From Erysipelotrichaceae bacterium (GTDB lineage Bacteria; Bacillota_I; Bacilli_A; Erysipelotrichales; Erysipelotrichaceae), in NCBI GenBank assembly GCA_963663995.1, contig OY760660.1, forward strand, positions 720,001 to 752,000: a stretch of DNA of 32,000 bases, in the 5' to 3' direction. Each line of letters opens with the position of its first letter. Position 1 is the first letter of the stretch. Positions 6,872-27,276 of this stretch are shown here, piece by piece. A program made the position numbers and the translations under genes. The notes beneath the pieces were generated by a model that was not told the origin of the DNA, made no database searches, and worked only from the letters and a program-made list of their open reading frames with translations.

Positions 6872-7369
6872 CTAAATTCGTAGACGCTTTAAAATTTCTA
6901 GCGCAAGTAAGCCTGTAAGTAAACCTGTTGGGATACTTGAAAACCAAAGCACAGGCAACCAATATATCATATAAACCGTTTGATTAATCAACATAAGTGC
7001 TAAGATTTGCCCTAAACCATGAAAAGCAGCTGAGCCCATACTAATCCCTATAATCGATAATTTATCTTGTTTGTATAAAATAATGGAAATCGCAGTTGAT
7101 AAAATAACCCCAGTCAGCGACAACCAAAAGCCAGTCCCAAAAATAATACCTTTTAAAAGTGAGGCAATTAAAACACGCATTAAATTTAAAATAATCATCT
7201 CTTTAACCCCAAAGAGAACTAAAGCAACTAAACCTAAAACATTCGCTAAACCTAATTTAACGCCAGGAACAGGTATTGGTAAAGATGGCTCAATCATATG
7301 CAACATAATACTCATCGCCAAAAGCATCGTTATCAGTGTTAAACGGCGTGTTGAACTAATCTTCTTCAT
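6872..7369 (-). CDS. Gx transporter family protein (heptaprenyl diphosphate synthase component I-like membrane protein)
   Basis: 165 aa, about 5 TM segments, glycine-rich helices. Sits in the typical position directly downstream of a NusG-domain-II protein, with a 4-nt overlap. Confidence 0.7.
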   Translation of the reverse strand: MKKISSTRRLTLITMLLAMSIMLHMIEPSLPIPVPGVKLGLANVLGLVALVLFGVKEMIILNLMRVLIASLLKGIIFGTGFWLSLTGVILSTAISIILYKQDKLSIIGISMGSAAFHGLGQILALMLINQTVYMIYWLPVLWFSSIPTGLLTGLLALEILKRLRI

Positions 7370-7755
7370 GAGATCACCGTATCTTCGTTATTTGGACGAT
7401 TGTTTGTCCCTTCAATTAAAATGACAATATGATTAGGTAAGCAAACAATTGGCACATTCGCATATTCAACCCAACCTTGAATACTACAAAGGTGATATGG
7501 GGATGTTTCTTTCTCAACACGTATTCTGCCATTTGCGACTTCAATAAAAACTTCACCTAAAGTTCCTTGAACAGTATAGGTCGCATCTGAACTCATATCA
7601 ATACGTAAAACTTCTTCATTTCGATAAGATACAACCGCTACTTTTTGACCAGATGTGCTTGCTCGCACAAAAAACTCCATCGACCCATATAAAACTACAG
7701 ATGTGATGAGGATAAAGATCATTAATAATTTGTCGTATCTATTTAATTTTTTCAT
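7366..7755 (-). CDS. NusG domain II-containing protein (DUF1312)
   Basis: 129 aa with an N-terminal signal anchor. C-terminal motif SPYHLCSIQGWV...PIVCLPNHIVILIEG is typical of the family. Confidence 0.75.
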   Translation of the reverse strand: MKKLNRYDKLLMIFILITSVVLYGSMEFFVRASTSGQKVAVVSYRNEEVLRIDMSSDATYTVQGTLGEVFIEVANGRIRVEKETSPYHLCSIQGWVEYANVPIVCLPNHIVILIEGTNNRPNNEDTVIS

Positions 7756-9248
7756 TCGTATTCTTTATAACATAATAAAGCAGAAACAGAATCTTTCCAG
7801 TGTTTTAATGCTTCAGAGCGTTGGGTTGCGCTCATTTTTGGGGTAAAGATTTTCTCAGGACTCCATTTTTCATAGAGTTCTATTTCACTTTTCACCCAAC
7901 CTAAACTTAAGGCTGCCATCATCGCACCACCAAAAGCAGCTGTCTCATGAATTTTGGGACGGATCACATTAAAGTTAGAAATCCCTGATTGAAATTCTAA
8001 TAAGAAATCATATTTAGAGAATTCTCCATCCACGTAAATTTCTTGAACTTTAAGCCCAGAGTCCATTTCCATCAGTTTTATCATATCGCGTGATTGAAAC
8101 GCTAAAGCTTCAACGGATGCGCGAACAATATGAGCAATTGAGGTTGAACGGGTAATCCCAAACATCGCTGCTTTTAAGTCTGAGCGCCAATACGGTGCCC
8201 CCATACCGACAAAAGCTGGCACAAATACAACCCCTTCATCATCTTCTACCGAGCGAGACAAACTTTCAATTTCGCCAGCACTTTCAATCAATCTTAATCC
8301 ATCTCTTAACCAGTGAATCGCTTCACCAGCACTAAAGACGGAACCTTCTAAAGCATAGGTAACTTCCCCACTCTTACGCCAAGCAATGGTAGAAACTAAA
8401 CCTTTTTTTGAATTTATTTTTGTATCACCGGTATTCATCAATAAGAAACAACCAGTCCCATACGTATTTTTAACATCACCTTTATGAATACACATTTGTC
8501 CAAATAAAGAAGCGTGTTGACTGGCAATAATTGAGGCAATTGGTACTTCTGCCCCAAAGACATTTTTATCGGTGTAACCAACAATTTGATTATTATCAAC
8601 AATCTTAGGTAAAACAGACATTGGGATATTCCATATTTCGCATAACTTTGGATCCCACTCACAGGTATCAATGTTCATTAATAAAGTACGTGAAGCATTT
8701 GAAACATCGGTAACATGAACTTTACCAGCCGTTAATTTATAAATGAGCCAGGTGTCGACGGTACCAAATAAGATATCACCACAGTTCGCACCCATTTGAC
8801 ATTCAGAGTGTTCATCTAAAATAAAACGAATCTTGGATGCGCTAAAAATCGCATCAATCATCAAACCCGTTCTCTTCTTCACAAAAGGCACAAAACCTTT
8901 TTTCTTCATATCTTCACAATAAAAAGCAGATTGACGTGATTGCCATACCAAAGCTGGAGCAATAGGTTCATGCGTATTCTTATCCCACATGATGGTTGTT
9001 TCACGTTGATTTACAATCGATATACCCGCTAAATCTTCAACTTTATAATGTGCTTCAGTTAAAACTTCTTGAACGACTTTTTGAACGGATGCAAACATTT
9101 CATTCGCATCTTGATTAACCCAAGCAGGATGTGGGTAATCACAGGCAAGTTTAGTCTGTGCTTTTGCGATAATAGAAAAATTTTCATCGAACAATATCGC
9201 TCGAGAAAAAGATGTTCCTTGTTGAATAACACATATAATCTTTGCCAT
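7752..9248 (-). CDS. FGGY-family glycerol-kinase paralog with degenerate catalytic motifs
   Basis: Start taken at the ATG at 9248 (MAKIICVIQQGT...), preceded by AAGGAG; the track start at 9296 would run into the arginase gene. Strong GlpK backbone: NQRETT, VWQSRQ, NASRT, NTYGTGCF, ALEGS, VPAFVGMGAPYW, FGITR. Key motifs are altered: DQGTTSSR to QQGTSFSR, DPYFSGTK to DAIFSASK, GDQQ to SQHA, DGGAV to DGEFS. Confidence 0.8.
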   Translation of the reverse strand: MAKIICVIQQGTSFSRAILFDENFSIIAKAQTKLACDYPHPAWVNQDANEMFASVQKVVQEVLTEAHYKVEDLAGISIVNQRETTIMWDKNTHEPIAPALVWQSRQSAFYCEDMKKKGFVPFVKKRTGLMIDAIFSASKIRFILDEHSECQMGANCGDILFGTVDTWLIYKLTAGKVHVTDVSNASRTLLMNIDTCEWDPKLCEIWNIPMSVLPKIVDNNQIVGYTDKNVFGAEVPIASIIASQHASLFGQMCIHKGDVKNTYGTGCFLLMNTGDTKINSKKGLVSTIAWRKSGEVTYALEGSVFSAGEAIHWLRDGLRLIESAGEIESLSRSVEDDEGVVFVPAFVGMGAPYWRSDLKAAMFGITRSTSIAHIVRASVEALAFQSRDMIKLMEMDSGLKVQEIYVDGEFSKYDFLLEFQSGISNFNVIRPKIHETAAFGGAMMAALSLGWVKSEIELYEKWSPEKIFTPKMSATQRSEALKHWKDSVSALLCYKEYE

Positions 9249-9252
9249 AAAC

Positions 9253-10086
9253 TTACTCCTTAATACTATGTATGAGTTCACATACATCTTTAACACATTC
9301 TAATGTATTCCCATTATCTTGAACAGGATTAAACTCAACGATGTCACACGATTTTAATGTCTCGTGTTGAAAAACATTTCTTAATATTTCCATTATCTCA
9401 GTTTGATTAAAGCCACCTTTTACCGGCGTATTAACCCCAGGGATTAAATGAGGATCCATCGAATCACAATCAAACGAACAATGAATATTTTGATGTTTCA
9501 TCATAAATTTATTTACTTCTTCAATACACCAAACTAAACCCTTTTCATTGATTTCATTCATCGTGATGATATTAACACCCCACTCCTTCATCAATGTTTC
9601 TTCTAAAGGATCTAAACTGCGAATTCCTACAGTTAAGATATTTTGCGATGGGACAAAGTGATCCATAATCGACACTAAATCAAGATGGCCATAACCTTGC
9701 GTCACCGCTAAAGGCATCCCATGAATTCGTTTTGAAATGGAAGATTCATCAGTATTGCAATCTCCGTGAGCATCAATCCATAAGACAGCCCAATCATCAT
9801 CTTTTGCACTTGCCGCAATCGAACCTATCGCTAAAGCATGATCTCCACCAAAAACCAGTGGAAACTCACCGTTTTTTGTATGTTTAATAATGGATTGTTT
9901 AATACGTTGGTTTAACTCTGTAATCGCTGTTAAATAAAGAGGTTTCTCATCTTTCAATAAACTTTGATCAATTTCTAATATTTCTTCAAAGTCAATGGTC
10001 TCACTTAAAACCTGTATGGCTTTCTCGCCACCAGAAATGTCACAACCTTGAACTAAATTAACCCCTATATGTACTATTTTTTTCAT
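9253..10086 (-). CDS. Arginase-family ureohydrolase (arginase-like)
   Basis: 277 aa. All Mn-binding motifs are present: GGDHALAIGS, WIDAHGDCNT, SFDCDSMDP. The arginase-type IHGMPLA and GIRSLDPLE motifs are also present. Confidence 0.85.
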   Translation of the reverse strand: MKKIVHIGVNLVQGCDISGGEKAIQVLSETIDFEEILEIDQSLLKDEKPLYLTAITELNQRIKQSIIKHTKNGEFPLVFGGDHALAIGSIAASAKDDDWAVLWIDAHGDCNTDESSISKRIHGMPLAVTQGYGHLDLVSIMDHFVPSQNILTVGIRSLDPLEETLMKEWGVNIITMNEINEKGLVWCIEEVNKFMMKHQNIHCSFDCDSMDPHLIPGVNTPVKGGFNQTEIMEILRNVFQHETLKSCDIVEFNPVQDNGNTLECVKDVCELIHSIKE

Positions 10087-10112: not shown

Positions 10113-10138
10113 TTAAAAAAGAACGGTTGCCCCGTTCT
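10113..10138 (-). terminator. Rho-independent terminator after ktrA
   Basis: Minus-strand RNA AGAACGG-GGCAA-CCGUUCU followed by UUUUUU. The 5' arm of the stem overlaps the ktrA stop codon by 2 nt. Confidence 0.7.
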
Positions 10139-12241: not shown

Positions 12242-12634
12242 CTAGACAAATTCAAGTTCTAGTGTGATCTCTGCTACTTGTGAAATAGTCGCGAAGACAG
12301 AACAATATTGCGTCGCTAAATCCATTGATTTGCGAATTTGTGCTTCTTTCTCATGTCGTGGACAAGTGACCTTTATCAAGACTTTTTCTAAAGTGCTAGG
12401 AATTGTCTCTCTTTTCTCACCGGATATTTCATAATTCACATAATCAAGTTCAATTCTTTTCTTAACTAAGATATCTAAGAATGTTGAATGTAAACAAGCT
12501 GCTAATGCTCCTTGCAACATATCGTATGGTCTAGCCTTATCATCAGCGATACCGATACCTATTTCACCTTGTTTTAAAACAAGTTTTCCATTAAATCCTT
12601 TTTCAAATTCTATTTTTGCATTTACTTGACTCAT
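12242..12634 (-). CDS. OsmC/Ohr-family protein (putative thiol peroxidase)
   Basis: 130 aa. Two conserved Cys contexts (ALAACLHS and ATQYCSVF). ATGA overlap with the upstream GGDEF gene. Confidence 0.75.
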   Translation of the reverse strand: MSQVNAKIEFEKGFNGKLVLKQGEIGIGIADDKARPYDMLQGALAACLHSTFLDILVKKRIELDYVNYEISGEKRETIPSTLEKVLIKVTCPRHEKEAQIRKSMDLATQYCSVFATISQVAEITLELEFV

Positions 12635-14256
12635 AAAAACTCCTTATTCACCTTTTTATAATAACGCATTTTATCATCATACATCGTATGATCTGCCAAA
12701 TTAAGTGCTGTTTCAAAGTCGATATCCATTTCTTTACTCACAACTAAAGCACCTGTACTTGCACTTAATTTTAATCCTTCGATATCTTCTTGAGCTACGT
12801 CCGCTAGCACACGTTCCTCAATTTTCTCTAATTCTTCTCTATTTACATCAAAGCACATATATAAGAATTCATCTCCACCTAAACGTACAAAGATATCATC
12901 TTCTCTAAAATTGAAGTATTTTCTAACCTTTGATGATAGTCGATGCAAAATAAATTCATAGAAATAGGTTCTTTGGACAAAGCGGATATTATTAATAATT
13001 GCTTGAGAAAATTTCATAATTGCTAAGTCTCCTGCTTGATGACCTAAGCGATCATTTATTTCTTTTAAACCATTAAGATCTCCAAAAACGACAGTGACAG
13101 TATGATTATTTGCCAACATCATATTAAAGCGTTCTTCCGCAATCTTTAAGCCATGAATCCGTGAATATGCACCACTCATCGGGTCATATTTCATTAACAT
13201 TTCTGTATTAATTCGATTCAAGAAGTAAAAATAAAGGATAAAGCCAATTCCATTAAATAAAATAAAGCTATAGATTAGCGAAGAACGTTTAAAGTCAAAA
13301 AGAAAACTTAAGAAATTATCCCAAGAATGATACGGGATTTCACTTTCATTTACTTCTGTGATGACATACCATTCTTCATGATTATTTATCTGTGATTTTT
13401 CAATATATTGCGTTTCTATCGTTAAATAATCAAAATGCAACACATGACTGAAATAGTAGATTTTATCATTGTCACTAACATAGCCTGAATTATTATTTTC
13501 AACGACTTTAAAAACATCAGGGTATTGTGATTTAAAAGAGATTGATGAATTAAACATAAAATCCCAATCAAAGTTTCGATTAGCTGTGTTTAAAATGTAA
13601 TCCCCTTTTTCATTTAAAAGATAAAAATGATCTGCTTGGGATATAACCATATCACTAATAAAGGTATCAATTAGTATATGTGCATCATAATTTAAAACAA
13701 CGATACCTTTTAAGATTCTATTATCATAAACTGTTTGGACAACCCGAATTGTTGGTATGATAGGGAAATGGACAACCCCATTTTCAAGATTTAAATCAAA
13801 TCTAGAAACATAGTACTCGTCTTCTTCTAATTGAATCCCTTCATAGAAAAAAGGACGACTTGAACGGTCTTCTAAATGAGTTGATACAAAGGATGTTTCT
13901 TCATCTTTATCAACCCGAACAATTTCTTGCCCTCTTAAATCAATAAAACGTATTTTATGATATATCCCTTTGTTTTTTGAAAATAGGACCCAATCTGATA
14001 ATAAATCATTTTCCCCATCATCTGTATTCAAGGAACGTAGATAAGTATCTTTTATAAAAGCTAGATCAGCTAGGTTACTAATGATTTGAGTATTTATATT
14101 TTTAACTGCGGCATCAACGATTAATTTTTCATGTGCTAGATAGTCTTCTTTTGTTTGTTCATTTCTTGCTTGTTCCCAATGAAAAAAAACAATCGTCAAA
14201 ATTAAATTGAAAATTAAAGTTAGAATTAATGATAATACAAAAGCTTGTCTTCGCAT
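12631..14256 (-). CDS. Membrane-bound sensor diguanylate cyclase (extracytoplasmic Cache-like domain plus GGDEF)
   Basis: 541 aa. TM helix near residues 5-25, an extracytoplasmic region of roughly 300 aa, and a second TM (SLIYSFILFNGIGFILYFYFL). C-terminal GGDEF domain with DPMSGAYSR, GDLNGLKEINDRLGHQAGD and RLGGDEF. An RxxD I-site (REDD) sits 5 residues before GGDEF. Confidence 0.85.
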   Translation of the reverse strand: MRRQAFVLSLILTLIFNLILTIVFFHWEQARNEQTKEDYLAHEKLIVDAAVKNINTQIISNLADLAFIKDTYLRSLNTDDGENDLLSDWVLFSKNKGIYHKIRFIDLRGQEIVRVDKDEETSFVSTHLEDRSSRPFFYEGIQLEEDEYYVSRFDLNLENGVVHFPIIPTIRVVQTVYDNRILKGIVVLNYDAHILIDTFISDMVISQADHFYLLNEKGDYILNTANRNFDWDFMFNSSISFKSQYPDVFKVVENNNSGYVSDNDKIYYFSHVLHFDYLTIETQYIEKSQINNHEEWYVITEVNESEIPYHSWDNFLSFLFDFKRSSLIYSFILFNGIGFILYFYFLNRINTEMLMKYDPMSGAYSRIHGLKIAEERFNMMLANNHTVTVVFGDLNGLKEINDRLGHQAGDLAIMKFSQAIINNIRFVQRTYFYEFILHRLSSKVRKYFNFREDDIFVRLGGDEFLYMCFDVNREELEKIEERVLADVAQEDIEGLKLSASTGALVVSKEMDIDFETALNLADHTMYDDKMRYYKKVNKEFL

Positions 14257-17272: not shown

Positions 17273-17650
17273 ATGAGAGGAAGACCAAAAGGTGGGAAGA
17301 ACAGAAAATACGAATTAGAATTTATGATTGAAGTAATTAATCGTTATTTAGAAGATAGAGTTTCACTACCTCGCTTAGAATCGGAATTAAACATTAGTCA
17401 TTCCGTCATCAGAAACTGGATAAGACATTATCGAGAGAATGGAATTGAAGGTCTTAGAACCATTCACAAGGGCAAAGGCAACCCTTATTCAGCCCTGTAT
17501 ACAAGTAAAAATTTAACTGAAGTTGAACGTTTAAAACTTGAGCTTATGAAACGAGACATTGAAATTGAACGCTTAAAAAAAGGATACACCGTGAAAGGAG
17601 TTGGTTCACAGAAGGAATACGTTACACTATCCGGCAAGACTATCAAATAG
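17273..17650 (+). CDS. IS-A transposase OrfA (HTH domain)
   Basis: 125 aa. HTH and leucine-zipper-like region; RBS AAGGAGG upstream. Contains the in-frame slippery run A AAA AAA G at 17575..17582. Confidence 0.85.
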   Translation: MRGRPKGGKNRKYELEFMIEVINRYLEDRVSLPRLESELNISHSVIRNWIRHYRENGIEGLRTIHKGKGNPYSALYTSKNLTEVERLKLELMKRDIEIERLKKGYTVKGVGSQKEYVTLSGKTIK

Positions 17651-17697
17651 CTGATGGATTAAAAGATAAATATTCAATTACTCAATTACTTAAAGAA

Positions 17698-18498
17698 ATG
17701 GGATTGAATCGATCAGGGTACTACAAATGGTTAGAGCGCAAAGATAGACCTAATCAATACATCCAATATCGAATGAAGTTAATACCATATATTACGCAAA
17801 TACATCAAAAACATAAGACTTATGGTTATCATCGAGTAGCCTATGAATTACGTAATCAAACAGAGTTTGTGTTCTCTGATCACTTGGTTCATAAATGTAT
17901 GAAACAGTTGGGTTTAAAATCAAGTGCGAGAAAGTATAGATATCGAAAAGTTGGTGATGAGCATGTCATTTACAAAAATGAAGTGGCTGGGCATTGGAAT
18001 GCCTCAAAACCTTATGAGATTGTCGTATCAGACATGACTCAGATTCGTAATCGAGGGAAAGCATATGAACTCACATTGTTTATCGATACGTTCAATAATG
18101 AAATTATCGCTCAATCCATGTCATCTCAAAAAGGTGATATTAAACCTTATTATGATTGTTTATCCCAATATTTAAAGCAAATAAAAGGAATAGAATACCC
18201 CATCATCCTTCACACAGATCAAGGGTCAGTCTACTCCAGTAAAGCTTTCAATCAAGCTCTTTCAAATTATAACATTATTCGTTCGATGAATCGCTCAGGT
18301 ACACCTACGGATAATCCAGTCAATGAAGCACTTAATGGATGGATGAAAGATGAATTGTATATAGATTTTAATATCTCTCGTTCAAATGATGTTTATCAAA
18401 CAATTAAAGAATATATTCATCATTTTAATCATGAACGTCCTGCATATACCTTACAATATAAAACCCCAATTCAATATAAACATGACTTAGGGTTCTAA
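17698..18498 (+). CDS. IS-A transposase OrfB (DDE integrase core), expressed as an OrfAB fusion by -1 frameshift
   Basis: DDE triad contexts VSDMTQI, HTDQGSVY and NPVNEALNGWMK. By my own reading, the -1 frame is open from 17575 (KKRIHRERSWFTEGIRYTIRQDYQIADGLKDKYSITQLLKEM...), so it joins orfA at the slippery site. Confidence 0.85.
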   Translation: MGLNRSGYYKWLERKDRPNQYIQYRMKLIPYITQIHQKHKTYGYHRVAYELRNQTEFVFSDHLVHKCMKQLGLKSSARKYRYRKVGDEHVIYKNEVAGHWNASKPYEIVVSDMTQIRNRGKAYELTLFIDTFNNEIIAQSMSSQKGDIKPYYDCLSQYLKQIKGIEYPIILHTDQGSVYSSKAFNQALSNYNIIRSMNRSGTPTDNPVNEALNGWMKDELYIDFNISRSNDVYQTIKEYIHHFNHERPAYTLQYKTPIQYKHDLGF

Positions 18499-18581
18499 TT
18501 GTTTTTTAAACTTGTCTAATTTTCCTTTACAAGTTCACCCTATAGGGTTTTTAAATATAATAAAGAAAATGAGGAAAAGTT

Positions 18582-19016
18582 ATGAGTAAAGTCCGATTTT
18601 CAGAAGAACAGATTAAACGATTGAAAGATAATCCGTATATAGAAAATATTAGTGAAAAGTCGATAACTTACACGATGGCTTTTAGAGAGAAATCAGTTGA
18701 TTTGTATCAGAGAGGATATAGTTCTAGACAGATTTTCGAAGATGCAGGATTAAGTGTTAAAGATTTAGGAATGAATCGTATCCGTTTGTCGTTAGAGCGT
18801 TGGCGAAAGATGAGTAAACGCGATGAAGGGTTTAAAGACACGCGAAAAGGAAGTTCAGGTCGTTCAAGACAAAAGCCAAGAACACTAGAAGAAGAACTTA
18901 AGTATTTGAAAGATCGAAATGAATACTTAGAACAGGAGAATGAATTCTTAAAAAAGCTCGACGCACTGGAAAGGAGTGTGAGATACAACTTAGCGCACAA
19001 GAAAAATACGAAATAA
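18582..19016 (+). CDS. IS-B transposase OrfA (HTH domain)
   Basis: 144 aa with a coiled-coil C-terminus. Canonical in-frame slippery heptamer A AAA AAG at 18950..18956. Confidence 0.85.
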   Translation: MSKVRFSEEQIKRLKDNPYIENISEKSITYTMAFREKSVDLYQRGYSSRQIFEDAGLSVKDLGMNRIRLSLERWRKMSKRDEGFKDTRKGSSGRSRQKPRTLEEELKYLKDRNEYLEQENEFLKKLDALERSVRYNLAHKKNTK

Positions 19017-19063
19017 TTTTTAACCTTAATTCAAAACGTAAAAATCGTTTAGATATAAATTAT

Positions 19064-19948
19064 ATGTGTACAATCGCACAAGTATCCAGATCAGGTTATT
19101 ACGCCTTTATCAAACGCAAACGAAGCCTTAATTTTAAAGACATTCAAGATGAGATTGATTTTGCCTACATCAAAGAAGCCTTCAACTATCGTGGCTATGA
19201 TAAGGGTGCACGACCCATTAAGATGTATCTTCAAGATAAACATAATAGGTGTATGAATCTTAAGAAAATACGAAGATTAATGCGTAAATACGGCTTAGTG
19301 TGTGAGATTAGACAAGCAAATCCATATCGACAAATGATGAGAGATATGGCAACTAACGATATATCAGTCAATCGAGTTAATCGACAATTCAAACAAGGGG
19401 TTGCGCGTAAAATACTTCTCACAGATATTACGTATATTACTTATGGTTCTCATAAGCGAGCTTATTTATCTGTCATCAAAGATGCCTCTAGTAATAAGAT
19501 ATTATCTTATAGGGTATCAGAATCCTTAGATGTCTCGTTTGTATTAAAGACCGTTCAAGGGCTTATTGAAACACAAATGGGTGATTTAAATCTAAAGGTT
19601 CTCATTCACTCAGATCAAGGTTCACATTATACATCAAGAGCCTTTAAACAAGTCTTAGATGAACTAGGAATTGAAAGTTCAATGTCGAGACGTGGAAATT
19701 GTTTAGATAATGCAGCTCAAGAAAGTTTCTTTGGGCACATGAAAGATGAAGTAAAATTTAAGCATTATAAGACCTATATTGAATGTGTTGAAGCGATTAT
19801 GGACTATATCAACTACTATAATTATGATCGCCCACAATGGGGGTTACATCGTATGACACCTCATAAATATGAAAGTTACTTAGATCGTTCAGATGATATT
19901 CCATTATTATTACCTGTTCTCTATCATCAGCCAGTAATATACCTATAA
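19064..19948 (+). CDS. IS-B transposase OrfB (DDE integrase core, IS150-group-like)
   Basis: DDE contexts LTDITYI, HSDQGSHYTS and SMSRRGNCLDNAAQESFFGHMKDE. The -1 frame is open from the slippery site (18956) to 19064 by my own reading. Confidence 0.85.
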   Translation: MCTIAQVSRSGYYAFIKRKRSLNFKDIQDEIDFAYIKEAFNYRGYDKGARPIKMYLQDKHNRCMNLKKIRRLMRKYGLVCEIRQANPYRQMMRDMATNDISVNRVNRQFKQGVARKILLTDITYITYGSHKRAYLSVIKDASSNKILSYRVSESLDVSFVLKTVQGLIETQMGDLNLKVLIHSDQGSHYTSRAFKQVLDELGIESSMSRRGNCLDNAAQESFFGHMKDEVKFKHYKTYIECVEAIMDYINYYNYDRPQWGLHRMTPHKYESYLDRSDDIPLLLPVLYHQPVIYL

Positions 19949-23919: not shown

Positions 23920-24651
23920 TTATATTTTTGTTTCTAAGCGTACATAGAATGAATCAGAAATCGTGTAATTTATTAAATATTCCATTAATTCATTATCTTT
24001 GTCAAAAATCGTCGACTCAATGACATTAGATAAATTCGATTTAGTCTTTAAATCATGCATCATTTCTTCATTGATAATTTCAGTATGATAGCGAAGTTTA
24101 ACGTGACTTAAACTCACACCATAAGTTTTAGTTAGATATGGCCATGTTTGTTTGTTCATTAAATCAACTTTATCTAAACCTTTGAATTTTGATAGTGGGT
24201 AATAAAGTTTAACTAACATAATTGGCTTATCATCGCCAAAATATATTCTTTTAAACTCTAAGTAATCACCATCCCCTTCTGGAATCATATCTAATAATCG
24301 TTTAGGGGCATCAACAACTGAAATTTGTATATCTTTAAAACTAGCTTTAAAACCATTTAACTCAATTAAATCAATAATTGAATGAATCTTATCAAAGAAG
24401 ATACTTGGCATTTCAAAGTGAATAAGATAATACTTATTATCTTTCTTCTTAATAATGTTTTCTTTGACTAAAGTATCATAGACATCCTGAGCTTCTTTTT
24501 CACTAAGTTCGTAGGTTCTCGCAAAATCAAGTAACTTAGGCATTTCAGTATCACTACTTAAATGATGAATATTGGTATAATTACGCATTTCTGCAACAAG
24601 TTGTTGTTGAACTGAATCATTGCGTCTTCGATCAATATGTAAGTTAAGCAT
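23920..24651 (-). CDS. GntR/UTRA-like protein with a degenerate winged-helix domain (second of a tandem pair)
   Basis: Start uncertain: ATG at 24651 or 24660, both overlapping the upstream gene's stop at 24644. N-terminal SVQQQLVAEMRNY...MPKLLDFARTYELSEKEAQDVYDTLVKENII follows GntR spacing, but the recognition helix is acidic and the wing lacks the G.G motif. The C-terminal ~170 aa look UTRA-like. Confidence 0.6.
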   Translation of the reverse strand: MLNLHIDRRRNDSVQQQLVAEMRNYTNIHHLSSDTEMPKLLDFARTYELSEKEAQDVYDTLVKENIIKKKDNKYYLIHFEMPSIFFDKIHSIIDLIELNGFKASFKDIQISVVDAPKRLLDMIPEGDGDYLEFKRIYFGDDKPIMLVKLYYPLSKFKGLDKVDLMNKQTWPYLTKTYGVSLSHVKLRYHTEIINEEMMHDLKTKSNLSNVIESTIFDKDNELMEYLINYTISDSFYVRLETKI

Positions 24652-25369
24652 AGATAACATCACTTTCCATGATTGTAAATTCGCTTGGTAAATAGCGAAC
24701 AATCATCGCAACAACTTTGGATTCACTATTGGAGAAAATACTTTCAATTTTAATCATTGGTGACCCTTCTGCGATTTCAAACATACGCGCATCTTTAGAA
24801 TCAGCAATATAACCCGACATGATGTTTTCTTGTTTACTAATATTACAACGCGTACATTCTAGTAATATTTCTGAAATTGTTTTATCCATATGAACGTCTA
24901 AGACTAAACGTCTAAAATAAGATTCATCGATATAACTTTCTTCCAAGACAACAGCATGATAATAATCTTTATGTAAACGAAGGCAGTGAAAAACGGATTT
25001 ACAATCAAAGTGTTTTTTTGCGACAGAGTTTAAGTTATTCTCATTAAAAGTTTCAATCAACATCGTTTCAAAAGGAAGCTTAGTCGCCGTTTCCAAACGT
25101 AAATCTTTAGGAGAGAAAATATAAGAATTTCGGTTAACCACATAGGATCCTTTCCCACGTGTACGCCGAACTTTACCTGTTTTTTCTAACACAACAAATG
25201 CTTTCTTTACAACACCTAGTGAAAGGTTATATAAATCAGCTATTTCTTTCTCCGTCGGGAGATGATAATGATGAGCTAATTTTCTTTCATCTATTGCTTC
25301 TTCAATGGTATCGGCAATCTGCTGGTAGATTGGTTTCTTAGATGTTTTATCGATAAAAATGTAATCCAT
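24644..25369 (-). CDS. GntR-family transcriptional regulator, HutC/UTRA subfamily
   Basis: 241 aa. N-terminal KPIYQQIADTIEEAI...LPTEKEIADLYNLSLGVVKKAFVVLEKTGKVRRTRGKGSYVV (wHTH), followed by a UTRA-like effector domain. Confidence 0.8.
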   Translation of the reverse strand: MDYIFIDKTSKKPIYQQIADTIEEAIDERKLAHHYHLPTEKEIADLYNLSLGVVKKAFVVLEKTGKVRRTRGKGSYVVNRNSYIFSPKDLRLETATKLPFETMLIETFNENNLNSVAKKHFDCKSVFHCLRLHKDYYHAVVLEESYIDESYFRRLVLDVHMDKTISEILLECTRCNISKQENIMSGYIADSKDARMFEIAEGSPMIKIESIFSNSESKVVAMIVRYLPSEFTIMESDVIYA

Positions 25370-25658: not shown

Positions 25659-26969
25659 TTAGATCACAAAGTGAACAATAAAGACAAACATTAAGACCCA
25701 AAGAATGATAGGTACATTTTTAGCACGTCCAGCAAATAAGCTAGCGACACCGTAAATGATGAAACCAACTGCAATCCCTTCAGATATTGAGTAAGTTAAG
25801 ATCATTGCGGCAATGGCAATAAAAGCCGATGATGCGACAACAAAGTCTTCCCAATCAATTTCTTTAAGTTGTTGAGCCATTAAAATACCAACAACAATTA
25901 AAGCTGGTGCTGTAACAGCAGATGTAACAACAACCAATAATGGTGCGAAGAAAATAGATAAGAAGAAGAGTACTGCAGTCGTTACAGCTGTTAAACCTGA
26001 ACGACCACCCACTTCAACACCTGAAGCAGATTCAATATATGAAGTAACTGTTGAAGTACCAAGCATAGCACCCACAATGGTTCCAATTGAGTCAGCTAAC
26101 ATCGCTTTATTAACATTTTCTAATTCACCTTTTTCATTGATAAGGTTAGTACGGTTCGCAACCGCAACTAAAGTACCAGCTGTATCAAAGAAATCAATGA
26201 ATAAGAAAGTAAAGATAACAATCATCCAATCAGAACGTGAGAAGAGTTCTGAGAAACCTGCTGCAAATGCACCAAGTGTTGGCATATCAAAATCAAAACT
26301 AACAACCGCACTTGGTAATGAAGGCATACCTTCAACACCCATCACGCCTAAGATTAAGCCAACAACAGCTGTTGTGACTAAACCAATGAAAATAGCTGCT
26401 GGTGTTTTCTTTGCGAGTAAAGCAATTGTTACGAATAATCCAAAAACTGATAACATGACAGTTGGGGCACTTAAATCACCTAAACCAACTAAGGTTGCAG
26501 GATTATCTACAATGATTCCAGCATTGACTAAACCAATGAAAGCAATAAAGAAACCAATCCCTGCTCCAAACGCAAGTTTTAAGTCTTTTGGGATCGCATT
26601 GATAATCATCGCACGAACACCTGAAACAGAAATAGCTAAGAATACAGCACCTGATACAAAGACAGCTGCTAAGGCTGCTTCCCAACTATAACCGAATGTT
26701 AAAACAACGGTAAAAGTAAAGAAAGCATTTACACCCATTCCTGGTGCTAATGCAATTGGGTAATTAGCTAATAGACCCATTACAAGTGTTGCGATACCAG
26801 ATGAAATCGCAGTGGCTAAAAAGACGGATTGTACAGGCATTCCTGTAATACCCAACATCCCTGGGTTGACAGCTAAAATGTAAGCCATCGTCAAGAAGGT
26901 CGTTAGACCGGCTAAGATTTCAGTACGTACATTCGTACCTAGTTTCTTAAGATTAAAGAATTTTTCCAA
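25659..26969 (-). CDS. NCS2/AzgA-family purine permease (PbuG/PbuO-like guanine/hypoxanthine permease)
   Basis: Start taken at the TTG at 26969, preceded by AGGAGA at 6-nt spacing, giving (M)EKFFNLKKLGTNVRTEILAGLTTFLTMAYIL, the typical family N-terminus. The track start at 27002 is also a TTG but has no RBS. Confidence 0.85.
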   Translation of the reverse strand: MEKFFNLKKLGTNVRTEILAGLTTFLTMAYILAVNPGMLGITGMPVQSVFLATAISSGIATLVMGLLANYPIALAPGMGVNAFFTFTVVLTFGYSWEAALAAVFVSGAVFLAISVSGVRAMIINAIPKDLKLAFGAGIGFFIAFIGLVNAGIIVDNPATLVGLGDLSAPTVMLSVFGLFVTIALLAKKTPAAIFIGLVTTAVVGLILGVMGVEGMPSLPSAVVSFDFDMPTLGAFAAGFSELFSRSDWMIVIFTFLFIDFFDTAGTLVAVANRTNLINEKGELENVNKAMLADSIGTIVGAMLGTSTVTSYIESASGVEVGGRSGLTAVTTAVLFFLSIFFAPLLVVVTSAVTAPALIVVGILMAQQLKEIDWEDFVVASSAFIAIAAMILTYSISEGIAVGFIIYGVASLFAGRAKNVPIILWVLMFVFIVHFVI

Positions 26970-27020
26970 GATAAATCTCCTTTTTCTTGTATTCTTTCCC
27001 AATCTGATGTGTACTACACA

Positions 27021-27155
27021 AATAAAAAAAGCCTGGGGAATGAGTCCAGACCAAGTTTTTGCTTAGTTAACATCAATTCGCCACAGTAGTAAAATCATTT
27101 ACGGTGATTTTGTAGAGACTGCCTCACCATATTAGAGGCATTATAGAGTAGTGTT
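27021..27155 (-). ncRNA. Purine riboswitch (guanine/hypoxanthine class) with a terminator expression platform
   Basis: Minus-strand RNA CUACUCUAUAAUGCCUCUAAUAUGGUGAGGCAGUCUCUACAAAAUCACCGUAAAUGAUUUUACUACUGUGG. It shows UAUAAU, P2 GCCUC/GAGGC, AUAUGG, GUCUCUAC, P3 AAAAUCA/UGAUUUU, the CCGUAAA loop, and C at the discriminator position. Downstream terminator GUCUGG-N9-CCAGGC followed by UUUUUUU (27021..27053). Confidence 0.85.
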
Positions 27156-27276
27156 TTTGTGAATACCTAATCATTTTATGCTAAGAATGAGCATTTTGTC
27201 TATGAAATTTCGATTTTATCTTGTATTATACGAATTTAATTGTTTACTATATCGATTTCTTTTATAAAATAGGTCT

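Follow-up and report, generated by a model that had tools for sequence, protein, structure and literature searches.

A glycerol kinase ortholog of uncultured Erysipelotrichaceae that has probably lost its kinase chemistry and is kept under purifying selection

The window analysed here, a stretch of 32,000 nucleotides from an Erysipelotrichaceae bacterium, contains a full-length gene derived from glycerol kinase (GlpK). Its product, the window protein, has the complete fold of the family, and the residues for ATP binding and catalysis are replaced. We think it probable that the gene is the lineage's own vertically inherited glpK, that the ATP-dependent kinase chemistry was lost before two sister groups split from their shared ancestor and that selection has since kept the gene as a non-catalytic pseudoenzyme. 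The loss of catalysis is inferred from the identity of the residues. Group A denotes the window protein and its relatives P0001 to P0004 (5 sequences) and group B the sister group including P0006 and P0007; together they comprise 7 sequences.

Gene, fold and family

The gene and its ribosome binding site are located as follows.

7752 to 9248, minus strand: GlpK-derived open reading frame from an ATG, 498 aa plus stop, with the FGGY_N and FGGY_C fold complete and the residues for catalysis and ATP binding substituted
9256 to 9261, minus strand: Shine-Dalgarno site AAGGAG, 7 nt 5' of the GlpK-like ATG, within the last codons of the arginase-family gene

A longer reading frame from a GTG start at 9296 would run into the upstream gene. 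Both Pfam domains of the FGGY carbohydrate kinase fold were found at full length and in order (PF00370 at residues 5-250, E = 7e-63; PF02782 at residues 260-448, E = 4e-34). The preliminary description had proposed a structure prediction, and the AF2 model indeed retains the GlpK fold with confidence (pLDDT 92.2, pTM 0.91; TM 0.92-0.95 against the solved GlpKs 3g25, 3h3n and 3ezw). The protein is colinear with GlpK from end to end, has the same length and carries no extension. It is about 45% identical to the solved Firmicute GlpKs (3g25, 3h3n), 42-43% to E. coli GlpK and 50-60% to Erysipelotrichaceae GlpKs. The GlpK backbone motifs recognised by eye in the preliminary description (NQRETT, VWQSRQ, NASRT, NTYGTGCF and ALEGS) are all kept.

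By its NCBIfam scores the window protein belongs to the GlpK sequence family: it reaches 604.1 bits for TIGR01311 (cut-off 590.35) and 623.9 bits for NF000756 (cut-off 498). The intact GlpKs at the same chromosomal position score 652-672 and 708-731 bits, respectively, and P0006 of sister group B falls below the TIGR01311 cut-off with 571 bits. As the curated cut-offs are passed, pipelines that use them would call the window protein GlpK, and glycerol use would then be predicted wrongly when the metabolism of these gut MAGs is reconstructed.

Active-site residues

We aligned the window protein with HMMER to the GlpKs of S. aureus (3g25), Elizabethkingia (6ude) and Enterococcus (1r59). Residue numbers are those of E. 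coli GlpK, verified on PDB chain 1bo5_O, whose sequence matches the reference used at 100% identity. The motif regions aligned without gaps, so the register that had been set by eye was correct and the replacement of Asp, Tyr and Asp at the catalytic positions holds. Nine key changes were observed: D10Q, S15F, Y135I, D245S, Q247H, Q314H, G411E, A412F and N415Y. The motifs concerned are the following.

9201 to 9230, minus strand: phosphate-1 motif VIQQGTSFSR (canonical AIDQGT[ST]SSR), with D10Q (codon 9222-9224) and S15F
8994 to 9011, minus strand: NQRETT motif kept, with glycerol-binding R83 and E84
8832 to 8861, minus strand: MIDAIFSASK, in which the glycerol contact Y135 is Ile (codon 8847-8849)
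8496 to 8531, minus strand: catalytic-base motif IIASQHASLFGQ (canonical [IV]GDQQAALFGQ), with G244A, D245S (codon 8520-8522) and Q247H
7986 to 8036, minus strand: adenosine motif YVDGEFSKYDFLLEFQS (canonical VDGGAS.N[DN]F), with G411E, A412F and N415Y

D10 is the phosphate-1 Asp of the ASKHA fold and serves Mg-ATP, and D245 is the catalytic base. The reading of this site as dead relies on data for the E. coli mutants D10N and D245N; our literature search for these mutants and for the ATP-contact residues returned no papers. For the phosphate-1 motif the change from DQGTTSSR to QQGTSFSR that had been described by eye reappears in the alignment (IDQGTTSSR to IQQGTSFSR). All five sequences of group A have Gln (CAA) at position 10, where group B has Tyr. 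The change from GDQQ to SQHA was likewise seen, including D245S. Where the canonical adenosine motif VDGG-A-x-x-N has G411, A412 and N415, which take part in adenine and ribose binding according to the structures of E. coli GlpK with ADP and to the annotation in UniProt/HAMAP, the window protein reads VDGEFSKY. The alignment thus bears out the earlier reading VDGEFSKYDF, opposite VDGGAVKNNF in the solved GlpKs.

Two of the earlier observations had to be narrowed. The motif DPYFSGTK had been described as changed to DAIFSASK, and the solved GlpKs read D(P/A)YF where the window protein has DAIF; however, DAYFSASK is already the normal motif of canonical relatives, so only Y135I counts as specific to the degenerate protein. 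This position is Met in P0004 and still Tyr in group B. The His that is phosphorylated by HPr (His232 of E. casseliflavus, YHF[FY]G) is absent as stated, and its position is occupied by Asn (DKNVFG; YHFYG to KNVFG). It is not part of the degeneration, though: intact Erysipelotrichaceae relatives also lack the His (DASFFG, DKKWFG), which makes the lack a trait of the family.

On the glycerol side W103 (VWQSRQ) and F270 (NTYGTGCF) are kept in addition to R83 and E84. The signature of GlpK specificity is R83, E84, Y135, D245 and F270 (PMC3245297). In the window protein it reads R, E, I, S and F, with three of the five residues left. Counted by role, 6/11 positions for ATP binding or catalysis are altered in group A and 8/11 in group B, as against 1/5 and 0/5 glycerol-side positions.

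Comparison with canonical homologues

As canonical set we used 111 close homologues, from which P0018 with its three changes was set aside, and 55 more (166 in total). Across 20 key positions this set showed only T/S variation at position 14 and a single R17L (P0079), and the window protein departs from it at nine of them. Among the 149 columns conserved to at least 95%, ligand-contact columns were changed more often (7/16) than others (19/133; Fisher p = 0.009).

We consider it very unlikely that the protein is a weak or unusual but true glycerol kinase which tolerates its substitutions, and that the automated label 'glycerol kinase GlpK' is right. Scores above the NCBIfam cut-offs, the retained fold, about 123 of the 149 highly conserved columns and most glycerol-side residues would agree with such an enzyme. 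It would, however, have to work after the joint loss of D10, D245, G411, A412 and N415, none of which varies in the 166 canonical homologues. D10 and D245 are also present in nearly all of 150 diverse representatives of 50% clusters, and the family score of the window protein lies 50-110 bits under those of the intact syntenic relatives.

Chromosomal position and neighbouring genes

The preliminary description had called the gene a paralog. This label is not supported: the gene fills the exact slot that intact glpK occupies in the nearest lineages and is thus a positional ortholog. Degenerate glpK (loci L001, L002, L003, L011, L012 and L013) and intact glpK (L005, L006/7 and L008) share one gene order, OsmC-TrkH-TrkA-arginase-like-GlpK-NusG_II-PF07456-ABC-ABC-dUTPase-M42-LspA-RluD, and the gene tree agrees with those of the neighbours. 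Groups A and B, 60% identical to each other, were monophyletic in 100/100 bootstraps, also with the 38 changed columns removed, and the trees of NusG_II, PF07456, TrkA and TrkH give the same grouping. The hosts are two sister groups of uncultured, gut-type Erysipelotrichaceae. No second glpK from the same 1.96-Mb chromosome appeared among the matches listed (two homologue lists, best 120 each), which is weak evidence, and the one scan of genome contigs yielded no locus other than the orthologous one of OY781039.1. Neither glpF nor glpO nor glpD adjoins the degenerate gene, and the same is true for the intact syntenic relatives. When 1.84 billion representatives were searched with a profile built from the 7 degenerate sequences, no further clade members emerged as a cluster of their own (best 547 bits); the search brought up only sporadic degenerate GlpK-like proteins that are unrelated to the clade.

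The neighbours of the gene in the window are as follows.

10120 to 10138, minus strand: terminator-like hairpin with T-run directly after the TrkA stop, from a consensus scan only
9253 to 10086, minus strand: arginase-family gene, 277 aa, upstream of the GlpK-like gene
7366 to 7755, minus strand: NusG_II-domain gene, downstream; its ATG overlaps the GlpK-like stop (ATGA at 7752-7755)
6872 to 7369, minus strand: PF07456 (EetB-like ECF S-component) gene, which overlaps with NusG_II and closes a tight four-gene cluster

The putative hairpin probably separates trkHA from a unit of the arginase-like, GlpK-like, NusG_II and EetB-like genes. The ATGA overlap suggests translational coupling of the GlpK-like and NusG_II genes. 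PF07456 has been assigned the role of an EetB-like ECF S-component (bioRxiv 10.1101/2022.11.04.515267). The arginase-family protein stays under every NCBIfam equivalog cut-off. In every lineage it has kept its metal-ligand motifs (GGDH, DAHGD and S.D.DSMD) intact, and we therefore rejected the idea that this neighbour has degenerated together with GlpK. Since the arginase-family gene and the other neighbours adjoin intact and degenerate versions alike, gene context is uninformative on a new role and was dropped as a clue.

Selection

The substitutions are present in every member of the clade, that is in 4 further clusters at 78-92% identity and in the sister group at 60%. The motifs were kept in 15/15 cluster members examined. 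For dN/dS we obtained 0.053 (window protein against P0001), 0.10-0.13 (against P0002 to P0004) and 0.054 (P0006 against P0007); as all of these comparisons have a saturated dS (above 1), the absolute values are rough. The dN of the degenerate GlpK ranged from 0.066 to 0.18 and did not exceed that of most neighbours: we observed 0.066 for the GlpK-like gene compared to 0.082 for TrkH, 0.090 for NusG_II, 0.080 for PF07456 and 0.156 for the arginase-like gene. Relative to TrkH, the degenerate GlpK evolves at the rate of intact GlpK: the ratio of GlpK to TrkH dN was 0.80-0.93 for the degenerate clade, compared to 0.83-1.07 for the intact lineages. Within the groups amino-acid change is thus as slow as in neighbouring housekeeping genes. 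The divergence on the stem and between the groups is faster than for most neighbours.

That this is a decaying gene, an unrecognised pseudogene left after loss of the glycerol pathway, is hardly credible and was already largely refuted by these data. The catalytic residues are gone, and a moderate acceleration along the stem and from one group to the other would fit decay (A-to-B distance ratio 1.67 as against 1.14-1.28 for most neighbours; root-to-tip 1.03-1.09 as against 0.80-0.95). Nevertheless, almost every assembly and cluster member seen, from various samples, has an intact reading frame of full length, and the single short entry (412 aa) is apparently a partial sequence. Furthermore 249 columns are invariant across two groups that are only 60% identical, and the Shine-Dalgarno site and the putative translational coupling are conserved. 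The conditions named at the outset as fatal to the idea, strain-specific substitutions and a gene in decay, are thus contradicted by clade-wide conservation and by purifying selection that matches the neighbours, with dS saturated. Two marks of a pseudoenzyme were observed: the essential residues are lost (D10, D245 and the adenosine motif), and purifying selection acted after the loss within both sub-clades, with the same caveat on dS.

Replacement pattern and proposed function

The preliminary description had left the choice between a pseudoenzyme or scaffold and an enzyme re-tooled for a different substrate, rather than random decay. Decay is disfavoured by the clade-wide substitutions, the neighbour-level purifying selection and the retained fold, and between the other two the evidence leans to the pseudoenzyme because the replacements for D10, D245 and Q247 differ between the sub-clades and position 247 varies even in the closest cluster. 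Groups A and B have in common A412F, N415Y, an acidic residue at 411 (E or D) and the absence of D10 and D245. They differ at positions 10 (Q/Y), 245 (S/N), 247 (H/Q) and 314 (H/Q). Eleven changes that are rare or absent in canonical sequences are invariant in 7/7 members of A and B: M308S, V344F, G362A, L367I, T380S, L381V, Y386F, A412F, N415Y, Q420E and G448A. Taken together, these eleven changes amount to a remodelled domain II.

A re-tooled enzyme would have a remodelled cleft with another reaction, phosphoryl donor or substrate, for example the hydrolysis of a glycerol-like compound, or phosphotransfer to it without a nucleotide, via new residues such as Ser245, His247, Glu411 and Tyr415. 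We regard this as rather unlikely. It could draw on the strong purifying selection, on the invariance of the remodelled pocket residues of domain II, on the acidic 411 of both groups and on the retained R83, E84, W103 and F270. Moreover, Ser245 has survived a switch of codon family, being AGT in the window and TCT in four relatives. The acidic 411 and the invariant pocket could equally mark a new ligand site or a new catalytic site. A new catalytic site would, however, not be expected to vary as these positions do, with different replacements at 10, 245, 247 and 314 in the sister groups and with H or S at 247 in the closest cluster. We down-weighted the idea that His247 forms a new catalytic site together with Ser245 and Glu411, as group B has Gln and two close relatives have Ser at position 247. 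In group B five positions of the phosphate-1 loop are degraded, which resembles relaxation and not redesign. To our knowledge, all characterised FGGY kinases rely on the two Asp residues of the ASKHA/FGGY mechanism.

For the pseudoenzyme we propose the following. The side chains of Phe412, Tyr415 and the acidic residue at 411 would fill or block the nucleotide pocket, so that ATP binding would be lost. The glycerol side of the cleft would remain usable, with R83, E84, W103 and F270 kept and in group B also Y135; binding of glycerol or a glycerol-like ligand, and/or of a partner protein via the domain-closure and oligomer surfaces, would thus probably be retained. A simple glycerol sensor is a weaker idea for the window protein, as 2/5 glycerol-signature residues are gone in group A. 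The retained function was probably already present in the ancestral enzyme beside catalysis. Such a pre-existing moonlighting role would explain the undiminished constraint as well as the altered ATP motifs of P0018. P0018 has the same synteny, is 88% identical to the intact P0014 and shows the changes G12S, G411V and A412V; it is a separate lineage that has altered its ATP motifs independently at the same locus.

A more specific proposal, which we put forward tentatively and do not expect to be correct, is that GlpK has a selected second, non-catalytic role as a glycerol-sensing regulatory subunit, or as the obligate partner of either the co-translated arginase-like enzyme or the NusG_II/EetB-like flavin-trafficking membrane proteins. 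The window protein would be the 'pure' form, a bacterial sensor or scaffold descended from a kinase of central metabolism, with the ATP pocket permanently filled by Phe, Tyr and acidic side chains of its own. This state would have been reached at least twice independently at this locus (A and B together, and P0018).

Related cases

Bacterial GlpK (E. coli P0A6F3, PDB 1gla/1bo5; S. aureus 3g25; E. casseliflavus 3h3n) shares the two-domain FGGY/ASKHA fold with the window protein, which differs from it in lacking D10, S15, Y135, D245, Q247, Q314, G411, A412 and N415. In mammals, the glycerol kinase homologues Gykl1/Gk2 lack kinase activity and serve as adapters (PMC5566117). They are eukaryotic paralogs derived from retrogenes and have a mitochondrial targeting sequence at the C-terminus (PMC5566117). 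They resemble the window protein in that the glycerol kinase fold is retained for a non-catalytic role, which for the window protein we propose from its sequence. The window protein, in contrast, comes from a bacterium, is a positional ortholog and has no extension; its substitutions are different, more extensive and of independent origin.

Our full-text literature searches found no earlier paper on a bacterial GlpK pseudoenzyme. The documented bacterial pseudoenzymes known to us are few and mostly duplicated regulatory paralogs. A positional ortholog of a textbook metabolic enzyme that would have lost its chemistry and kept its selective constraint would be a new kind of bacterial case. Constraint that outlasts the chemistry would imply a hidden non-catalytic function of GlpK in these bacteria, and the degenerate glpK would offer a natural separation-of-function allele for tracing it.

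Among representatives of 50% clusters from metagenomes, D10 and/or D245 or the glycine of the adenosine motif are sporadically missing too, for example in P0218, P0150, P0160 and P0253. P0218 reads KQSSASCQ, VSINNGAF and VDGIYSIYDI, and its motif VDG-x-aromatic-S-x-Y-D resembles that of the window protein. Their identity to the window protein is only 35-40%, which is below that of ordinary GlpKs, and they thus represent separate origins.

Reading frame, family and gene cluster

The GlpK-like gene belongs to a compact cluster of four genes (arginase-like, GlpK-like, NusG_II and PF07456); in ATGA at 7752-7755, its stop codon and the ATG of the following gene overlap. The gene context suggests conserved co-expression and translational coupling of the cluster. 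The relevant features are as follows.

7752-9248, minus strand: GlpK-like ORF, ATG start, 498 codons plus stop
9256-9261, minus strand: Shine-Dalgarno sequence AAGGAG, 7 nt 5' of the GlpK-like ATG, within the last codons of the arginase-family gene
9253-10086, minus strand: arginase-family gene (277 aa, short), directly upstream of the GlpK-like ORF
10120-10138: terminator-like hairpin after trkA, upstream of the cluster (consensus scan only)

A GTG start at 9296 is unlikely for the GlpK-like ORF, as it would run into the upstream gene. Both FGGY domains are present, the protein scores above the NCBIfam GlpK cut-offs (TIGR01311, 604 vs 590; NF000756, 624 vs 498) and glycerol kinases are its top matches in the PDB (E-values, 1e-153 to 1e-142). 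The AlphaFold2 model, computed from a 78-sequence alignment, is confident (pLDDT 92.2, pTM 0.91) and superposes on solved GlpKs with a TM of 0.92-0.95. The arginase-family protein has its metal-ligand motifs intact in every lineage and falls under all NCBIfam equivalog cut-offs for arginase, agmatinase and formimidoylglutamase (best 189.7 vs 227.6). The EetB family, to which PF07456 corresponds, comprises ECF S-components with an implied role in exporting FAD (bioRxiv 10.1101/2022.11.04.515267).

Substitutions at key positions

We aligned the protein with HMMER to the GlpKs of S. aureus, Elizabethkingia and Enterococcus, and verified the E. coli numbering on PDB chain 1bo5_O, which shows 100% identity to the reference used. 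The motifs align gap-free, and the substitutions at catalytic and ligand positions, read by eye in the preliminary description, are real.

Key positions (E. coli numbering): canonical residue; window protein; where compared, group A (window protein and clusters P0001-P0004) and group B (clusters P0006 and P0007)
10: D; Q; A Q, B Y
15: S; F
135: Y; I
244: G; A
245: D; S; A S, B N
247: Q; H; A H (two sequences close to the window protein have Ser), B Q
314: Q; H; A H, B Q
411: G; E
412: A; F
415: N; Y

T439A, L441F and G448A are among the further changes; R83, E84, W103, Q246, G266, T267, F270, G310 and G410 are retained. In canonical homologues (111 close ones among the matches listed, omitting P0018 with its three changes, and 55 from a second search) the only variation at 20 key positions was T/S at 14 and one R17L (P0079). 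Canonical sequences have 149 columns with ≥95% conservation, of which some 26 are altered in the window's clade, and ligand contacts are over-represented among these 26 (7/16 altered vs 19/133 for the others, p = 0.009). It is very improbable that the protein is a residual kinase. Two of the changes first described need qualification. For DPYFSGTK to DAIFSASK, Y135I is specific and the remainder is not, DAYFSASK being the norm in intact relatives; loss of the HPr-target His is likewise not particular to the window protein, as intact relatives also have no His.

Orthology and origin

Among the matches listed, P0001-P0004 show 92, 85, 86 and 78% identity to the window protein and share its substitutions; the P0001 cluster includes the window's own sequence. 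P0006 and P0007, at ~60% identity, have a different degenerate pattern (IYQSSSAST, ANQQ, VDGDFSTYDF) and keep Y135. The remaining matches listed (≤60% identity) are all canonical GlpKs except P0018. The sole reference genome match was OY781039.1 ('MAG: Erysipelotrichaceae bacterium', a 1.96-Mb chromosome).

A conserved block (OsmC-TrkH-TrkA-arginase-like-GlpK-NusG_II-PF07456-ABC-ABC-dUTPase-M42 peptidase-LspA-RluD-rhomboid) surrounds the degenerate genes of group A (loci L001, L002, L011, L012) and group B (L003, L013) as well as the intact GlpKs P0005, P0014 and P0009 (L005, L006/7, L008). The gene had been called a paralog; this was not borne out, as the degenerate gene sits in the syntenic slot of intact GlpK. 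None of the retrieved loci, degenerate or intact, has glpF, glpO or glpD adjoining the GlpK gene. The context is uninformative on a new function, since intact and degenerate genes have their neighbours in common.

In a neighbour-joining tree groups A and B were joined in 100/100 bootstraps, unchanged without the 38 altered columns, and their clade nests among intact syntenic GlpKs. The trees of NusG_II, PF07456, TrkA and TrkH each give the same grouping. There was therefore a single degeneration event, in the ancestor shared by the two sister lineages, followed by vertical inheritance; the window gene is an ortholog. Seven clusters at 90% identity make up this small clade, and every one comes from metagenome-derived assemblies.

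Selection and rates

The check for purifying selection proposed in the preliminary description was run with pairwise Nei-Gojobori estimates, and the GlpK-like gene gave 0.053-0.13 against its group A relatives, ratios that are rough as dS is saturated.

Pairwise dN/dS (dS >1 in every comparison; dN unsaturated)
GlpK-like, window vs P0001: 0.053
GlpK-like, window vs P0002-P0004: 0.10-0.13
GlpK-like, P0006 vs P0007: 0.054
Arginase-like: 0.06-0.22
NusG_II: 0.06-0.14
PF07456: 0.03-0.12
TrkH: 0.08-0.12
TrkA: 0.01-0.10

dN agrees with these rough ratios: the gene is not decaying. Between the window and P0001 its dN of 0.066 is below that of PF07456 (0.080), TrkH (0.082), NusG_II (0.090) and the arginase-like gene (0.156), the fastest-evolving of the cluster, which leaves decay with almost no credibility. 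The GlpK/TrkH dN ratio spans 0.83-1.07 for pairs of intact lineages and 0.80-0.93 inside the degenerate clade; within-clade constraint is therefore unchanged. Distance to canonical lineages relative to distance among them was 1.67 for the GlpK-like gene and 1.14-1.28 for most neighbours, and root-to-tip length was 1.03-1.09 in the degenerate clade vs 0.80-0.95. This points to faster change on the clade stem and between A and B, with normal constraint inside each group.

Independent assemblies contributed 15 cluster members, and 15/15 keep the motifs; a single short entry of 412 aa is apparently a partial sequence. The window uses AGT for Ser245 (8520-8522, minus strand) and its four closest relatives use TCT, a Ser-to-Ser codon-family switch that needs two substitutions, within <10% protein divergence; we read it as a sign of constraint. 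Catalytic and ATP-binding residues have thus been lost while constraint was maintained.

Pattern of change across the cleft

Among 11 ATP/Mg/catalysis positions (D10, T13, S15, R17, D245, Q246, T267, G310, Q314, G411, N415), which we take to be the relevant ones from E. coli GlpK-nucleotide structures and UniProt/HAMAP annotation, six are altered in group A and eight in group B. On the glycerol side (R83, E84, W103, Y135, F270; glycerol residues documented in PMC3245297) the counts are 1/5 and 0/5. Both groups have A412F, N415Y, an acidic 411 (E or D), G362A, L367I, T380S, G448A and several further domain-II changes, a shared set invariant in 7/7 sequences.

The nucleotide pocket may have been remodelled first, probably filled by Phe, Tyr and an acidic side chain, and then conserved in its new form, after which the catalytic positions would have been free to drift. 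A conserved pocket with drifting catalytic positions would be the expected signature of a pseudoenzyme and would speak against a newly designed active site. That the protein is a re-tooled enzyme, as had also been proposed, seems unlikely to us: the replacements at catalytic positions differ between A and B in a drift-like manner. We somewhat favour a selected, non-catalytic GlpK derivative. Such a protein, its ATP site blocked, might still bind a glycerol-like ligand or a partner, and the role retained could be an ancestral moonlighting one of GlpK. Mammalian Gykl1/Gk2 offer the closest functional parallel (PMC5566117); no account of a GlpK pseudoenzyme in bacteria turned up in full-text literature searches.

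Recurrence

P0018 (L014, 6001-7491), with 88% identity to intact P0014, occupies the same syntenic glpK slot. No more than five highly conserved columns depart from the canonical consensus in this protein (G12S, V59A, R317K, G411V, A412V), and the first three of these changes also occur in group B. From its sequence, this looks like an independent, earlier-stage ATP-site alteration at the same locus. In a set of 150 diverse representatives of 50%-identity clusters, a few GlpK-like proteins of separate descent have no adenosine glycine, or are without D10, D245 or both (P0218, P0150, P0160, P0234, P0246, P0248, P0253, P0259). VDGIYSIYDI of P0218, from an AT-rich organism, resembles VDGEFSKYDF of the window at only 35% protein identity.

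Other features in the window

12631-14256, minus strand: sensor-domain and GGDEF gene, between an FAD-dependent protein and OsmC
17273-19948, plus strand: two adjoining IS3-type elements, each with orfA (HTH) and orfB (rve integrase)
23920-25369, minus strand: two overlapping ORFs with UTRA
25659-27002, minus strand: xanthine/uracil permease gene
27067-27168, minus strand: purine riboswitch (Rfam RF00167, 70.7 bits), directly 5' of the permease gene

The sensor/GGDEF gene is present in the window and L001 and absent from L002, L005, L006 and L008. It matches the GGDEF profile incompletely and in separate pieces, the best piece covering positions 2-71 of 161, and the cyclase domain may itself be degenerate. 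The IS3-type pair sits between purA and a CvpA-like gene and is absent at that place in L001 and L002. A GntR HTH occurs only in the upstream UTRA ORF (24644-25369), and the pair could reflect tandem duplication or the disruption of a regulator.
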